Made by a program: the position numbers and the translations under genes
Assembly (NCBI GenBank): GCA_003557065.1
Contig: PWPS01000001.1
Coordinates: forward strand, 1-45,284
Direction: 5' to 3'
DNA from: Candidatus Nealsonbacteria bacterium
Lineage (GTDB): Bacteria > Patescibacteriota > Minisyncoccia > Minisyncoccales > PWPS01
Length of the DNA stretch: 45,284 bases
In this document: in pieces, positions 2,617 through 26,955 of the stretch
Layout of the letters: every line of letters begins with the position of its first letter
Position numbering within the stretch: position 1 is the first letter of the stretch
Notes under the pieces: model-generated
Told to the model about the DNA's origin: nothing
Database searches by the model: none
The model's input: only the letters and a program-made list of their open reading frames with translations

Positions 2617-3684
2617 CTATTCGATTAACTTTTTAAGACTTTTGGGATTCCTTGAATAGGTAATCGCATCTTCTATTGTTATCTCATTATTTTTAATCAG
2701 GTCACTTAAATACTTATTAAGGCTGATCATCCCGTCGTTGGAAGAAGTTTCCACTATGATATCAAGTTCATGGATTTTATTTTCTCTTATCAAATTTGAG
2801 ACTGCAGAATTTCTCCTCATTATCTCACAAGCTGGAATCAGTCCTCCCGATTTTCTGGGTATCAATCTTTGAGAGACTATTCCCAAAAGCGATGCCGATA
2901 ACTGAGCTCTGATTTGATCCTGTTGATCGGATGGAAAGGAATCAACTATTCTGTGAACCGTCTGACTGGCAGAATTGGTGTGCAGTGTGGAAAAAACCAA
3001 ATGTCCGGTTTCAGCAGCGGTTATGGTAGTCTCTATAGTCTCGGGGTCTCTCATTTCACCGACCATTATGATGTCCGGATCCTGTCTGAAAACCGACTTC
3101 AAAGCTCTGGCGAAAGAGGGGGTATCCTGTCCGACTTCCCTTTGATCGATCAAAGCCTTGTCGTCTTTAAAGATATATTCTATAGGATCTTCTATCGTTA
3201 TGATGTGCTCAAATCTGGTTTTGTCTATCTTATCTATTAAAGCAGCTAAAGTTGTTGACTTACCATGCGAAGCGGGTCCGGTTATTAAAACCAGTCCCTG
3301 GTTGGCTTTTGAAAAATCATAGAGGCTTGAAGGAAGATGTAGTTCTTCCAGGTTTTTAATCCTTGCCGGTATCCTTCTCAGTGCGCAAGAAATATCTCCT
3401 TTTTGATTGAATATATTCACCCTGAATCTTGTTCCGTCATCAGATTGATAAGAAAAATCAACCTCTTTTTCCTTCAAGAAGCGTTCTCTTTGCTCTTCCG
3501 TAGCCAATTCAAAAGCCATCAATTTGGCCTCTTCACTTTTTACGGGATCCTCCTCCCTTATCTTTTGTAGATTCCCATTTATTCTTATTATCGGGTGTCT
3601 TCCGACGGATATATGTAAGTCGGATGCTTCTTTTTGAACCGCTTGATTCAATAATCTTTTTAATTTTTCTTTAATTTCATTCAT
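2617..3684 (-). CDS. pilT: Twitching-motility/retraction ATPase PilT
   Basis: Walker A GPASHGKST, Walker B IIMVGEMRD and a short PilT-size protein without a T2SSE_N domain. I place the start at MNEIKEK (ATG at 3684), which overlaps the pilB stop by 8 nt. The track start at 3732 adds a K-rich tail that lies inside pilB. Confidence 0.9.
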   Translation of the reverse strand: MNEIKEKLKRLLNQAVQKEASDLHISVGRHPIIRINGNLQKIREEDPVKSEEAKLMAFELATEEQRERFLKEKEVDFSYQSDDGTRFRVNIFNQKGDISCALRRIPARIKNLEELHLPSSLYDFSKANQGLVLITGPASHGKSTTLAALIDKIDKTRFEHIITIEDPIEYIFKDDKALIDQREVGQDTPSFARALKSVFRQDPDIIMVGEMRDPETIETTITAAETGHLVFSTLHTNSASQTVHRIVDSFPSDQQDQIRAQLSASLLGIVSQRLIPRKSGGLIPACEIMRRNSAVSNLIRENKIHELDIIVETSSNDGMISLNKYLSDLIKNNEITIEDAITYSRNPKSLKKLIE

Positions 3685-5437
3685 TTTCCTCTTCTTTTTT
3701 TGTTTCTTTTGTAGCTTTAAGAACAACCTCAACCGAGGTATGTCCCTCCAGGGCTTTCATAATGCCGTCTTGTCGCATCGTTATCATCCCCTGTTTATAT
3801 GCTTGCTTTTTTAATGGTTGCTCTCCTTTGTCTTCCAAGACTAAATTAGCCATCTCATCGGTCATCTCCAAGGCTTCATAAATTCCGATTCTTCCCTTAA
3901 ATCCGGTGGATCCGCACTTCTCGCAGCCGACCGGTTTAAAAATTTTAATGTCCGAAAGATTAAGACTTTCTCTGGTTCTCGGAGGGAGTTGCTCTATCTC
4001 ACTCAATATTATTTTTTTTATTCTTTCCTCGGGAACAACTTCTTTCTTACAACCGTCACAAAGTCTCCTGACCAATCTTTGAGCAATAGCCGTATTGAGC
4101 GAAGGGGGAACGAGATAAGGCTTTATCCCCATATCGGTCAATCTGGGAATAACTCCGACCGCATCATTGGTATGCAGTGTGGAAAGAACTATATGACCGG
4201 TAAGAGCAGCGTGAACCGCTAATTCCGCCGTTTCCTGATCACGAATCTCACCGACCATTATGATGTCCGGATCCTGTCTGAGAATTTGTCTTAATCCACT
4301 GGCAAAATCATATCCTATATCATGCTCTATCTGCGACTGATTTACCCCATCGATAAAATACTCCACCGGATCTTCCAATGTCACTATATTAACTTCTTCC
4401 GTATTCAATCTTCTCAGCAAAGAATAAAGTGTCGTCGTCTTACCCGATCCGGTAGGTCCGGTAGCAAGAATCATTCCGGTCGGCCTGTTTACTCCTCTGT
4501 TCACTATGGTCTCGGTCGAGTCTCTCATTCCCAGCTCTTCCAACTCCATCATTCCCTGTTCGGGATCAAGAACTCTTAAAACGACTTTTTCCCCCATGGT
4601 TGTCGGCATGGTGGCAACACGAAAATCAATATCCTTTCCGGCGATTTTTGAAAAGAATCTTCCGTCTTGCGGGAGTCTTCTTTCTTCTATCTTCAAGTTG
4701 GATAAAATTTTAATCCTGGCAACTACGGCCGGGTGTATTTTTAAAGGAAGCACCAATGAGGACCTTAACGCTCCGTCTATCCTGTATCTAACCTCCAACT
4801 TTTCTCTACCGGGCTCCACGTGTATATCCGAAGCTCCTCCCTCTATAGCCTCTTTTAGAATGACCGAAACAACCCTTACGATAGGTGCCTCTTCCGCCAT
4901 TTTCTGAACATTCTCCGTATCTTCTTCATTTATCCTTTTTGCCAACTCCTCTTCTTCTTCCGCCATGGCCCCCAGTGCCGCTCCCGCACCTTTTCTCAAC
5001 TCTCCATACTGACTTAGTATCTCTTCAAAGGTGCTTAGGTTTATTAGAAATATTTTGTAGGAAAACCCACCCCTACGAGAAAGAAATCTGAGCACCTCCT
5101 GAGCTTTCAAATCCTTGGGATAAACCATTCCTATTTCAATCGCATTTTCAGTCTTGTTTAAGGGAACCATTTTGTAATGCTTGGCCGAGTCTTCAGGAAT
5201 AAGGTTCGCTATGTCGGGCAAAACACTACCCAAACGATCAAGATTAACCTCGGGCTTGTAGGTAATATCCAAAATCTCACTTTTTATCCTGAAAAGCTGA
5301 TCTTCCGTAATCGGAATCGATGTATCTTCCATTATAACCTCTTCTTCTTTTCGTTCTCTGCTCTTTTCTTGCAACTCTTCAGCCTTTTCTTCACTTATCA
5401 ATTCCCTTTTTTTGATCTCGTCTATTAAGCTTTGCAT
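3677..5437 (-). CDS. pilB: Type IV pilus assembly ATPase PilB (GspE family)
   Basis: 586 aa. N-terminal T2SSE_N-like region, Walker A GPTGSGKTTT, IIMVGEIRD, and a tetracysteine CDGC..CEKC cluster. Confidence 0.93.
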   Translation of the reverse strand: MQSLIDEIKKRELISEEKAEELQEKSRERKEEEVIMEDTSIPITEDQLFRIKSEILDITYKPEVNLDRLGSVLPDIANLIPEDSAKHYKMVPLNKTENAIEIGMVYPKDLKAQEVLRFLSRRGGFSYKIFLINLSTFEEILSQYGELRKGAGAALGAMAEEEEELAKRINEEDTENVQKMAEEAPIVRVVSVILKEAIEGGASDIHVEPGREKLEVRYRIDGALRSSLVLPLKIHPAVVARIKILSNLKIEERRLPQDGRFFSKIAGKDIDFRVATMPTTMGEKVVLRVLDPEQGMMELEELGMRDSTETIVNRGVNRPTGMILATGPTGSGKTTTLYSLLRRLNTEEVNIVTLEDPVEYFIDGVNQSQIEHDIGYDFASGLRQILRQDPDIIMVGEIRDQETAELAVHAALTGHIVLSTLHTNDAVGVIPRLTDMGIKPYLVPPSLNTAIAQRLVRRLCDGCKKEVVPEERIKKIILSEIEQLPPRTRESLNLSDIKIFKPVGCEKCGSTGFKGRIGIYEALEMTDEMANLVLEDKGEQPLKKQAYKQGMITMRQDGIMKALEGHTSVEVVLKATKETKKEEENE

Positions 5438-5441
5438 TTTT

Positions 5442-6635
5442 TTAATTAATGAGACCTAATTCTTCTATTTTTTCTTCAGCACGCAAATAGAACTCGTTGA
5501 TTTCCCTCCTCAGCTCATTCGGAGTAAATTCTACTTCTTCGTATCTGTTTTTAATTTCTTCCACTTCCTCTCTAAGTAAAGCGTACTCATTTTCCGCTCT
5601 CATTATTATTTCCGGATCATCCAAATCCTCTATCATTTGAAGGAAAGAAGCAAAAGCATTTTCAACCTCTTGGAAAATTTCTTCCGCTTCGTCGAATTCG
5701 GTAAAGTCATCAACTAATTCTTCCAATTTTTTTATTTTTTCTTCTATGTCCGATTCATATTGCCCGATTGATTGCCTTAAAGAAGATACTGTCAGCTCTC
5801 CTCTTGAATATCTTTCTTCGATATCTCTGAACCTTTCTTCGAATTCGGAATAGTTTTCTTCCATTTCACTTCTAATATCTTCCTCTAAAAACTCTTTGAC
5901 TCTCTCCAGGGCTCTATGAAATTCGGTTAATTTTTCCCCGGCTCTCATTAGAAGATTTTCCGCCTCCCTCTCTCCCTCCGTTTGATAATCCTCCAACGTC
6001 GTATCATAATCATCTTTTCCTATTATCACTATATCTCCACGCATCCCTCCCCCGAAAGACGAAAAATAAGAGACCATTCCATCTTCTGCCTTAAATTCGA
6101 ATTTTTCTTCCCTTTTATCCGCTATTTCCCCCGAATCAAACACAATATCTCCAGCACTGTCTTCTATTTTAAAATCATGCTCTTCTCCACTAAAGTTTTC
6201 AATGGTAATCTCATACCATCTCCCTTCAAAAAGAAAAACTTCCGGATTCCTTTCTCCGGCTATTCTGTCAGGAAAAATTCCCGTCCAGCCGTCATCATCA
6301 ACCTTAAAGACAAGGTTAAAATTCTCCCACCACTCTCTCAGACGACTATCCGTCGGTATTCTGGGTGCATGAAAAGGGTTTTCAACCAAAACCTTATCCC
6401 AAAGAAGAAAAGGGGAATCTCCTCTATGGAAAGTATTTAAATTTTGAAAAAAATAACTGTCCAAAAAGACCAGATCTATATTAGGAAATCTCTGCAGGCT
6501 ATGGTCAATCATAATCTCATCATGTTCATAATCGGAAATAAAAACCTCCCAAACCACAAACCCAATTATCGCAACCGTAATCAAAACTACGGTATAGAAA
6601 TATTTTGGATCACTGTTTTTTTTATCCTTGCTCAT
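5442..6635 (-). CDS. Hypothetical membrane-anchored protein in the pilus operon (cupredoxin-like middle, acidic coiled-coil C-terminus)
   Basis: 397 aa, 2 nt after the pilO-like stop and 4 nt before the pilB start. One N-terminal TM helix (YFYTVVLITVAIIGFVVWEVF). A beta-rich middle ends ..WYEITIENFSGEEHDFKIED..VSYFSSFGGGMRGDIVIIG. The C-terminal half is rich in Glu/Asp/Arg heptad-like sequence. I recognise no named family. Confidence 0.7.
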   Translation of the reverse strand: MSKDKKNSDPKYFYTVVLITVAIIGFVVWEVFISDYEHDEIMIDHSLQRFPNIDLVFLDSYFFQNLNTFHRGDSPFLLWDKVLVENPFHAPRIPTDSRLREWWENFNLVFKVDDDGWTGIFPDRIAGERNPEVFLFEGRWYEITIENFSGEEHDFKIEDSAGDIVFDSGEIADKREEKFEFKAEDGMVSYFSSFGGGMRGDIVIIGKDDYDTTLEDYQTEGEREAENLLMRAGEKLTEFHRALERVKEFLEEDIRSEMEENYSEFEERFRDIEERYSRGELTVSSLRQSIGQYESDIEEKIKKLEELVDDFTEFDEAEEIFQEVENAFASFLQMIEDLDDPEIIMRAENEYALLREEVEEIKNRYEEVEFTPNELRREINEFYLRAEEKIEELGLIN

Positions 6636-8268: not shown

Positions 8269-9303
8269 CTAGCTTTTGGAATTTAATCCCTTTATAGCCA
8301 TACCTACGGCCACTGAACAAAGGGGAGAAAGCTCTTTTAGCGCTCCCTCCAAAGAAGAGGGGTATTTTAAATCTCTGAAAGGATTGGCATCATCTATGTC
8401 GAATCCTTCGGATAAAGACTTTTTAATCTCTTTCAACTTGGAAGCTCCGCCCGTAATGTATATCTTGTCTATATTTTTTCCCTCTTCTTTCTGATAACTA
8501 TCACAAATATCTTTTATCTTTTCCGCCAAATCTTCCGAAAGGGATTTTTTAATTTTTTCGGAAGTCTCCGACAGATTTTCTTCCCCTTTATTATAGTTAA
8601 TTTCCGGCAACATATCAAAATCCTCCGTAAAATCCTTACCCGATATTTCAAGACTGTGGCTGTGTTTCGGGATTTTGTCCTCTATTATATTAACCGTAGT
8701 CGACTGATCCCCTATGTCGGAAACTATAATCGTTTTTCCCTCTTTTCCATAAACCTCAGCCAAGCCGAAGGTTCCCGCATCCAGAAGACCCACCTCCAAT
8801 CCCGATTTTTTAGCTATTTTTCTATAGGTTTTAACCGTTTCATTGGGAACAGCCAAAAGTAAAACCTCTACCATTTCACCCTCTTCACCATCTCTCAGTC
8901 CGGTTAATGTCCAATCCAGGGTAACCTCATTAAGTGGAAGGGGGATTCTTTGTCTGGCTTGAAATTGAATAGCCGACTCCACTTCGGATCTTTTCATTTT
9001 GGGAACCTCGAAAGATGTGAAAAAGCTGCTGAAATCGGGGATGGCAAAAACGCTATTTTTAGTTTTTATGTCCGCCTCTTTCAGTATGGCCCGTATGGTG
9101 TCCGAAATCGCATCGATAGAAGATGAAAAAGCTCTTTCGTTTTTGTTTCTAATTTCGGTTCCGGTAACATCCTTGATTGAGGCTATTCCATAGTTTTCCA
9201 GGGTAAAATTATTTCGTTCTCTCGATAGTTCCACCACTTTCACCGATGTTGACCCCACGTCCACACCCAGATACATTTTTGGCTCTTTGGTAAATAGTGA
9301 CAT
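8269..9303 (-). CDS. pilM: Actin-like pilus assembly ATPase PilM
   Basis: 344 aa. N-terminal phosphate-1 motif LGVDVGSTSVKVVEL and a later ITGGASKL motif of the actin/HSP70 fold. First gene of the cluster. Confidence 0.85.
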   Translation of the reverse strand: MSLFTKEPKMYLGVDVGSTSVKVVELSRERNNFTLENYGIASIKDVTGTEIRNKNERAFSSSIDAISDTIRAILKEADIKTKNSVFAIPDFSSFFTSFEVPKMKRSEVESAIQFQARQRIPLPLNEVTLDWTLTGLRDGEEGEMVEVLLLAVPNETVKTYRKIAKKSGLEVGLLDAGTFGLAEVYGKEGKTIIVSDIGDQSTTVNIIEDKIPKHSHSLEISGKDFTEDFDMLPEINYNKGEENLSETSEKIKKSLSEDLAEKIKDICDSYQKEEGKNIDKIYITGGASKLKEIKKSLSEGFDIDDANPFRDLKYPSSLEGALKELSPLCSVAVGMAIKGLNSKS

Positions 9304-10477: not shown

Positions 10478-10553
10478 GTCCCCGTAGTTCAATCGGATAG
10501 AACACAAGCTTGCGGAGCTTGCGATAGAGGTTCGAATCCTCTCGGGGACACCA
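10478..10553 (+). tRNA. tRNA-Arg (anticodon GCG), CCA encoded
   Basis: Acceptor GTCCCCG/CGGGGAC, D-stem GTTC/GAAC, anticodon stem CAAGC/GCTTG with loop TTGCGGA, T-arm AGAGG-TTCGAAT-CCTCT, 3' ACCA. Confidence 0.85.
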
Positions 10554-26879: not shown

Positions 26880-26955
26880 GGGCGTATAGCTCAACGGTTA
26901 GAGCGCTACTCTTATAAAGTAGAGGTTCCAGGTTCGATTCCTGGTACGCCCACCA
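26880..26955 (+). tRNA. tRNA-Ile (anticodon TAT), CCA encoded
   Basis: Acceptor GGGCGTA/TACGCCC, D-stem GCTC/GAGC, perfect anticodon stem CTACT/AGTAG with loop CTTATAA (U33, anticodon TAT, A37), T-arm CCAGG-TTCGATT-CCTGG. Confidence 0.85.

Follow-up and report, generated by a model that had tools for sequence, protein, structure and literature searches.

A 397-codon open reading frame (ORF) in the type IV pilus operon of a Candidatus Nealsonbacteria genome encodes, with a probability that we put at about 0.65, an accessory subunit of the pilus alignment complex whose role is structural rather than redox and whose base is a small membrane anchor widespread in the Parcubacteria. The ORF occupies the minus strand at positions 5442–6635 of a 45,284-nucleotide stretch (contig PWPS01000001.1 of assembly GCA_003557065.1), referred to here as the window. 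The full-length protein is an elaboration, in one genus that includes metagenome-assembled genomes (MAGs) from soda lakes, of a broadly conserved and unnamed small component of Parcubacteria pilus operons. The pilus alignment complex is an assembly of an already known kind; what is new here is the undescribed small protein family at the base of this elaboration.

The ORF (P0001) starts with ATG, ends with TAA and has only six further open codons upstream of its start. It stands fourth in a series of genes that share its orientation, namely pilM, a gene in the pilN position, pilO, the ORF itself, pilB, pilT, pilC, a pilin gene and pilD, in a genome of 633 kb (38% G+C, 97.7% complete) that is typical in size for the Candidate Phyla Radiation (CPR, or Patescibacteria). 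The stop codon of pilO (TAA) is followed after 2 nt by the ATG of the ORF, and the TAA of the ORF after 4 nt by the ATG of pilB. Both gaps are exactly those given in an earlier first-pass annotation of the sequence, which assigned no strand. That annotation had judged the gene almost certainly co-expressed with the pilus machinery and unlike any canonical type IV pilus component, a view that it would have abandoned for orthologues lying away from pilus genes or for a profile match to a described pilus component. The order pilM – pilN-like – pilO – X – pilB was kept at every full-length homologue examined, and scans of the target, 22 homologues and seven short forms against Pfam and NCBIfam matched no canonical pilus family, returning only coiled-coil or transmembrane (TM) noise. 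The same architecture and the same neighbours recur in independent assemblies, indicating that the ORF is not a chance one, and the tight junctions together with the conserved synteny make co-expression with the pilus genes likely. Promoter-like and terminator-like sites near the gene showed no excess over shuffled sequence.

Residues 1–92 of the protein are a member of an unnamed protein family, about 90 amino acids (aa) in length and recognizable by a TM helix and by I/L-D/N-F..L.S and GRxNPF motifs. A word-indexed search returned only three close homologues, all in the pilus context described above. A profile made from long forms only, in turn, matched ORFs of 86–108 aa in the same slot in sister genera (E = 1e-6 to 9e-4), which stop just past an N-P-F motif equivalent in the alignment to N86-P87-F88 of the target; a profile of the core recovered the target at positions 6360–6635 with E = 3.7e-35. 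The family consensus opens with MAITF-x-x-K/R-K-x-Q, proceeds through a TM helix with a conserved Trp and about 20 variable residues to I-D/N-F-x-x-L-x-S-x-x-L-x-x-L-x-P-F-E, and closes with a C-terminal G-R-E-N-P-F-x-P-Y. The target fits this definition in its basic tail, in W29 (invariant across 23 long and short homologues), in P51-N-I-D-L-V-F-L-D-S, in N86-P87-F88 and in its position between pilO and pilB. The opening of the consensus also bears a superficial likeness to MAI-x-I-K-P, with which the PilN-position proteins of the same operons begin (loci L033–L056), and the likeness may reflect a common cytoplasmic partner (perhaps PilM) or coincidence.

Of 201 genomes sampled from the order, 132 were matched by the core profile, in 106 of 150 genera, and nearly all of the matching ORFs are 90–115 aa long. 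At each of 28 loci checked by tblastn the short ORF lay between pilB and pilO, pilN or pilM; it was directly beside pilB at 27 of them, the pilB match at the remaining locus being about 650 nt away on the same side. A profile search with the family returned at least 571 clusters (90% identity; E <= 0.001), those with a source name being labelled ‘hypothetical protein’ from Parcubacteria, Pacebacteria and Nealsonbacteria apart from one evident misannotation as a symporter. None of the 571 clusters carries a precomputed Pfam domain, the short members scanned singly were negative, and a profile search of the core against the PDB gave TM-helix noise only (E >= 0.4). Published lists of CPR pilus components comprise PilB/T/C/M/N/O/D, with no gene in the pilO–pilB slot (PMC6744442; PMC11623550), and in our incomplete coverage of the literature we found no report that names a CPR gene at this position. 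The suggestion in the first-pass annotation that the protein could be lineage-specific thus stands for the full-length form, which is confined to one genus, but not for the first ~92 residues, which represent a widespread family in the pilO–pilB slot across the order. Most genomes of the order have two to four PilM_2 matches, often at separate loci, suggesting more than one pilM-type module per genome of ~0.6 Mb; where both are visible (for example on contig 12 of genome G040), the small gene appears linked to only one PilM locus.

Structure prediction with AlphaFold2 (AF2) gave a predicted local distance difference test score (pLDDT) of 62 in an initial run with four sequences and a mean pLDDT of 82.8 when repeated with a 131-sequence alignment. 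The single N-terminal TM helix proposed earlier was recovered with high confidence (Table 1). A Lys-rich dodecapeptide precedes that helix and acidic sequence follows it, from which we infer an N-in/C-out topology; the whole protein has an isoelectric point (pI) of 4.3 and a net charge of −58. Residues 34–105 form only short helices, with pLDDT values that stay at 42–69 despite the 131 sequences, against about 90 elsewhere in the model, and we therefore read the conserved core (residues 34–92) as non-globular rather than as an unresolved part of the model. A type IV pilin or pseudopilin was considered and rejected: the target has no PF07963 match (the pilin of the operon matches at E = 7.9e-12), and its N-terminus is without the Gly-1 or Glu+5 of a class III signal.

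Beyond the core, the protein carries a separate domain. An exhaustive phmmer search of 1.84 billion representatives produced 207 matches, about 16 of them to full-length orthologues and the others to residues ~105–209 only. The latter include 133 non-orthologous relatives (E from 7e-24 upward, up to ~36% identity); ten of these were scanned, and eight matched PF00127 (plastocyanin/azurin family) at E <= 0.01, six of them above the curated cut-off. The PF00127 model itself gave no match to the target at E <= 1. AF2 places a beta-sandwich at residues 107–205 (pLDDT 87–96), and the top 50 Foldseek matches in the PDB, for both AF2 models, were all cupredoxin-containing proteins. The best domain-level fit was to the N-terminal cupredoxin of a Hyphomicrobium nitrite reductase (HdNIR; PDB 6tfd), with E = 1.3e-6, a root-mean-square deviation (rmsd) of 3.2 Å over 110 columns and 24% identity; plastocyanins (TMt 0.56–0.59) and rusticyanin were also matched. 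Fold-defining residues shared with the relatives comprise W117, G119, P122, N130-P131, Y141, F181, A183, Y190 and G200, of which P122, P131 and Y141 are kept in all 17 orthologue cupredoxins, and Y190 and G200 in 16 of the 17. We conclude that residues 106–206 are a member of the cupredoxin superfamily by both fold and sequence, and not a blue copper protein. The cupredoxin-type fold had been suggested in the first-pass annotation, which asked for a structure prediction and a Foldseek search and regarded the lack of a beta-sandwich as fatal; the sandwich is present (at a pLDDT of about 90), and sequence and structure searches agree on its kinship.

This long form is found in all nine genomes of the window's genus, each of which keeps both core and cupredoxin. 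The ORFs called in the genus range from 194 to 397 aa, and orthologues overall reach 433 aa. The cupredoxin and the helical tail occur in this genus only and are missing from the short forms of sister genera; among 401 sampled Patescibacteria genomes the cupredoxin domain was detected in one, the window's own (G000), with one more marginal match that is interrupted by stops. A scan of genome contigs found three loci, and a scan with the long-form alignment added one. Named MAGs with the long form are Ca. Nealsonbacteria T1Sed10_186 and B1Sed10_182 and one deposited as an uncultured Ca. Saccharibacteria. The labels T1Sed10 and B1Sed10 correspond to Siberian soda-lake sediment metagenomes (PMC6704655, refs 78–79), and another source gives ‘hypersaline lake sediment in Siberia’ (bioRxiv 10.1101/2024.03.10.584303).

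The relatives of the cupredoxin domain point to its probable source. An RR (Tat-like) signal is present in 110 of the 133 non-orthologous relatives, a lipobox in 50 and a C..H..M loop in 124, and 119 have a pI below 5; one carries a PGF-CTERM motif and one comes from Halobacteria archaeon AArc-dxtr1. In a FastTree phylogeny of domain copies the 17 CPR domains fall within one 18-tip clade (support 0.92), which is consistent with a single gain. Since the closest relatives are acidic, Tat-exported and halocyanin-like, and given the distribution described above, a halocyanin-type domain was likely captured from co-resident haloarchaea at the base of the genus, followed by variable gain of helical repeats.

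We weighed four alternatives to an accessory structural subunit: in order of rank, a module for host contact, a genuine PilP or GspC orthologue, a metal site still at work, and a passenger without function. The first draws on the same affinities: a cupredoxin taken from a haloarchaeal host might be shown at the pilus base, where it would bind the host surface or a redox partner in episymbiosis. The closest relatives of the domain are indeed haloarchaeal-type surface halocyanins, and no intact copy of it was found in the other Patescibacteria sampled. An archaeal host is moreover plausible for the group, because Ca. Nealsonbacteria are reported to live as ectosymbionts on methanogenic archaea (bioRxiv 10.1101/2022.04.20.488981). 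The genus itself, however, has no known host, and the domain sits near the membrane, about 70 residues past the TM helix, rather than at a pilus tip. Its surface residues are variable (orthologues are 30–55% identical), and the ligand loop, the usual docking patch for partners, is degenerate. We regard a host-contact role as unlikely, though as the best placed of the four.

A second alternative, somewhat less probable again, is that the protein is a true but diverged PilP or GspC orthologue, a bridge between the inner-membrane platform and an outer conduit. In pilMNOPQ operons pilP directly follows pilO, as the target gene does, and some GspC variants have a coiled-coil C-terminus, so that the succession of TM helix, beta-sandwich and helical tail has a parallel there. 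The G-R-x-N-P-F motif that closes the core also resembles R-D/S-P-F motifs in the N-terminal regions of PilP proteins. Against this, the PilP family PF04351 gave no match at E <= 1 to the target, the 22 homologues or the seven short forms (a whole-genome search with the same model carries no weight here, its control genomes having been silent too), and neither a PilP nor a GspC structure appeared among the top 50 Foldseek matches. No secretin was found in the genome (controls were positive in six genomes), which leaves a PilP-like protein nothing to dock to, and the anchor is a TM helix rather than a lipoprotein signal. The identity of the sandwich as a halocyanin-type cupredoxin, restricted to one genus and added to an ancestral ~90-aa form that has no globular domain, rules out a PilP domain or GspC homology-region (HR) domain for that part of the protein.

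The state of the copper site bears on whether the domain could still bind metal. Ligand columns were read from an alignment of 189 domain copies; in the non-orthologous relatives they are occupied by His in 97%, Cys in 89%, His in 90% and Met in 84%. The target keeps H153 (6177–6179) and M198 (6042–6044), while the Cys is replaced by S192 (6060–6062) and the second His by G195 (6051–6053). Alignment to the PDB structure agrees (GEEHD against GAQHD, and YFSSFGG----GMRG against YYCSIAGHRQAGMEG), and the ligand loop of the target is four residues shorter than that of the HdNIR cupredoxin. The Ser and Gly noted at these two positions in the first-pass annotation are exact. The Cys and second His are lost and the loop is shortened, and with His153 and Met198 remaining the site is incomplete. 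The full set of four ligands is present in none of the 17 orthologues, most of which keep none. The closest homologue (P0002) also retains His153 and Met198, and in P0011, another orthologue, three of the ligand positions are occupied by Cys, Cys and His. In P0007, P0009, P0011 and P0012 the domain contains exactly two Cys, at the positions of the first His and the Cys ligand, and in the other 13 it contains none; this strict pairing suggests that a disulfide may have replaced the metal centre. The same Cys pair was seen at two further loci (L025 2512–3654 and L026 6001–6696), read by eye from translations rather than from the alignment, and a Cys2 site would be an alternative for such a pair in the place of the copper centre. 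MdbA-like thiol-disulfide oxidoreductases have been reported to be enriched in CPR genomes (PMC6744442).

A working metal or redox site, such as an altered Cu or Zn centre formed by His153, Met198 and other residues that couples the pilus to copper sensing or electron transfer, would accord with the residues kept in the target and P0002 and with the unusual set in P0011. The replacement of the essential Cys thiolate by Ser and of the second His by Gly, the shortened loop and the uniform lack of a complete ligand set among the orthologues all speak against it. The genome holds no other PF00127 protein (controls were positive in five reference genomes, including Haloferax), which makes a redox role unlikely, and CPR bacteria are generally without respiratory chains. 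We give this alternative very little credence.

The C-terminal half was described in the first-pass annotation as a long hyper-acidic coiled coil. Its acidic and helical character is clear: residues 210–397 contain 60 Asp and Glu against 23 Lys and Arg (pI 4.2), and AF2 lists tail helices at residues 207–217, 220–249, 252–277, 283–336, 341–366 and 372–392 (described as five helices), with block-mean pLDDT values over residues 207–392 of mostly 81–98 (59 for block 211–220). A single fixed coiled coil, on the other hand, was not borne out. Residues 239–304 and 328–393 align over 66 aa without gaps at 29% identity (BLASTP E = 6e-6), each with a loop of the form R-Y-x-x-G/V-E-L/F-T, and because of this internal duplication the region is better called a pair of ~66-aa helical-hairpin repeats than a long coiled coil. 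The number of repeats differs among orthologues, which have none, about one or two. Matches of SMC/Rad50-type hidden Markov models (HMMs) to the tail in Pfam and NCBIfam were compositional noise, far under the cut-offs. That the whole ORF is a hitch-hiking or decaying fusion, tolerated without any pilus role, might be read from this variability (194–433 aa in total among orthologues) and from stops within the tail region of the match in genome G020, but is hardly credible for a protein whose core is conserved with invariant residues and a fixed operon slot in at least 106 genera, whose core and cupredoxin persist in all nine genomes of the genus, whose cupredoxin keeps its fold-defining residues, and whose host genomes are streamlined to about 0.6 Mb.

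The features of the protein and its neighbouring genes are collected in Table 1. The PilN-position protein, which has no match in NCBIfam or Pfam, has also expanded in this genus, being about twice as long as its counterparts in sister genera: it measures 367 aa here, 348–370 aa in the closest relatives, 265–283 aa in the rest of the genus and 183–196 aa in sister genera. Its additional length, ~180 residues, is C-terminal. An Rfam scan of the 45-kb window found 18 tRNA genes (for example at 10478–10550 and 26880–26952), which is dense for a 633-kb genome and unrelated to the ORF.

Table 1. Features of the accessory-subunit candidate and its operon neighbours (coordinates refer to the window).
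Feature	Coordinates	Strand	Basis
Whole ORF, 397 aa plus TAA stop (P0001)	5442..6635	-	ORF call, junctions
Lys-rich short cytoplasmic tail, residues 1–12 (MSKDKKNSDPKY)	6600..6635	-	sequence; probably cytoplasmic by the positive-inside rule
Single TM helix, residues 13–33, with invariant Trp29	6537..6599	-	AF2 helix 11–33, pLDDT 88–94
Conserved extracytoplasmic core, residues 34–92, P51-x-I-D-L-x-F-L-D-S-x-x-F ... N86-P87-F88	6360..6536	-	core profile, alignments; predicted non-globular
Linker, residues 93–105, WW-x-x-F motif conserved in long forms only	6321..6359	-	alignment; AF2 helix 97–105
Cupredoxin (plastocyanin/halocyanin-type) beta-sandwich, residues 106–206, degenerate type-1 copper site	6018..6320	-	phmmer, AF2, Foldseek
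Acidic helical region, residues 207–397, pI 4.2	5445..6017	-	composition, AF2
Helical-hairpin repeat 1, residues 239–304, loop motif R-Y-x-x-G-E-L-T	5724..5921	-	BLASTP of the two halves
Helical-hairpin repeat 2, residues 328–393, loop motif R-Y-E-E-V-E-F-T	5457..5654	-	BLASTP of the two halves
pilO, upstream neighbour, 174 aa	6638..7162	-	PF04350, E = 1.8e-9
PilN-like gene, 367 aa	7164..8267	-	no Pfam match; tblastn marks the PilN-position gene in related loci
pilM	8269..9303	-	PF11104, E = 7.5e-36
pilB assembly ATPase, downstream neighbour	3677..5437	-	PF00437, E = 3.7e-133, plus MshEN domain

We believe the best explanation for these observations is that the protein would act as a bitopic (N-in, C-out) accessory subunit of a secretin-less type IV pilus machine, in a Nealsonbacteria-type Patescibacterium that is probably haloalkaliphilic. 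Its first module (residues 1–92) would be the lineage's copy of the small pilO–pilB-slot protein common in Parcubacteria, in the position that PilP takes elsewhere. It would comprise a short basic tail, a TM helix and an extended external segment of ~55 aa with two motifs, and this segment may serve as a linear docking peptide for the external domains of PilN and PilO or for another part of the machine. The N-terminal region of PilP is reported to bind PilN and PilO, and the docking proposed here would be of a similar kind. The second module (residues 106–206), a halocyanin-type cupredoxin gained once at the base of the genus, most likely from haloarchaea, would provide a stable beta-sandwich scaffold rather than an electron carrier, since the fold-defining residues are kept and the type-1 copper site is lost. 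The third module (residues 207–397), with two copies of an acidic helical-hairpin repeat whose number depends on the species, would combine with the second into an ectodomain, adapted to salt, that juts out from the pilus alignment complex; the PilN-like partner is enlarged in the same genus. That ectodomain might serve as a spacer, prop the pilus base against the cell wall or S-layer, or offer a surface for contact; a spacer or brace role in particular is put forward tentatively. The first-pass annotation had likewise proposed a stator or spacer in place of PilP/PilQ-type components, a role that stays conjectural. A bolder proposal, which we regard as doubtful, is that the ~90-aa protein is a fourth subunit of the alignment complex, a minimal and secretin-independent counterpart of PilP acting through its docking peptide, and that this genus uses it to display a captured and de-metallated haloarchaeal halocyanin.

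Several observations weigh against an accessory subunit with this history. Searches for the small family came up empty in 69 of the 201 order-level genomes, of which 200 have PilM; either the family can be dispensed with, or it has diverged beyond detection, or it belongs to just one of several pilus systems, and the near-universal presence of PilM makes co-occurrence with it non-discriminating. In the domain phylogeny, the eighteenth tip inside the CPR clade is the ligand-less middle domain of a haloarchaeal-type protein, P0023 (locus L060 1562–2908), a three-domain halocyanin with a Tat signal and a PGF-CTERM-like end whose flanking domains keep their ligands while the middle domain lacks all four. 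Its placement could be a product of long-branch attraction, and its existence implies that the presumed donors already possess degenerate copies. For the direction of transfer we argue from distribution and sequence features, with an unrooted tree and one close relative from a named organism, and that direction should be taken as probable. With a median pI of 5.8, the proteome as a whole is acidic to a moderate degree only, and part of the protein's acidity may therefore be a matter of composition and not of salt adaptation. Finally, contact with PilN and PilO is a proposal, as are any effect on piliation, membership of the PilMNO complex, and the docking and bracing roles suggested for core and ectodomain.

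Host attachment and DNA uptake in the ultra-small CPR bacteria are believed to depend heavily on type IV pili. Because the component lists stop at PilB/T/C/M/N/O/D, and because this gene turned up in two-thirds of the genomes sampled from one order and its family counts at least 571 clusters, a conserved, unnamed fourth membrane gene in the pilMNO–pilB block is a concrete candidate for a missing part of the machine in bacteria without an outer membrane. In the long form, the fold of a copper protein appears to have been taken over, probably from another domain of life, to have lost its metal site and to serve now as a structural module, which suggests that genes have moved between hypersaline Patescibacteria and haloarchaea. 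If the display of a captured haloarchaeal domain were true, it would point to an archaeal host or a close physical partner for the soda-lake Nealsonbacteria. These implications hold within the limits of an inferred function and of a long form confined to one genus.

The protein can be set beside four known systems. With the halocyanins and the plastocyanin family (PF00127) it shares homology over residues ~105–209, the same Greek-key fold and the residue set from W117 to G200; it differs from them in its incomplete copper site (H, S, G, M) and shortened ligand loop, and from halocyanins also in that the domain stands behind the membrane anchor of a pilus operon rather than a Tat or lipobox signal. 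EfeO (PDB 7wgu), with an N-terminal cupredoxin and a C-terminal helical M75 domain, was the top Foldseek match (E = 5e-7) and likewise joins a cupredoxin that is not a classical blue copper domain to an all-helical one, which is why it ranks first. The helical part of the target is an acidic repeat of variable copy number, and an EfeO-like Cup-M75 protein was rejected on a global rmsd of 14–23 Å (TM-score about 0.2), the lack of a Peptidase_M75 HMM match and of a conserved HxxE, and a tail that varies in length and sequence. GspC/XcpP of type II secretion resembles the target in layout only (a cytoplasmic tail, TM helix, linker, beta-sandwich and helical or coiled-coil C-terminus), with no sequence or Foldseek similarity, and its HR domain docks to the N0 domain of a secretin. 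PilP (PF04351), as known from Pseudomonas, Neisseria and Myxococcus, differs from the target, which has no PF04351 match, is held by a TM helix without a lipobox, and owes its sandwich to a cupredoxin added in one genus to an ancestor without a globular domain. The two nevertheless correspond in place and build: both are encoded directly after pilO, both are tethered to the cytoplasmic membrane and lie outside it, and both join an extended, poorly structured N-proximal segment to a beta-sandwich.

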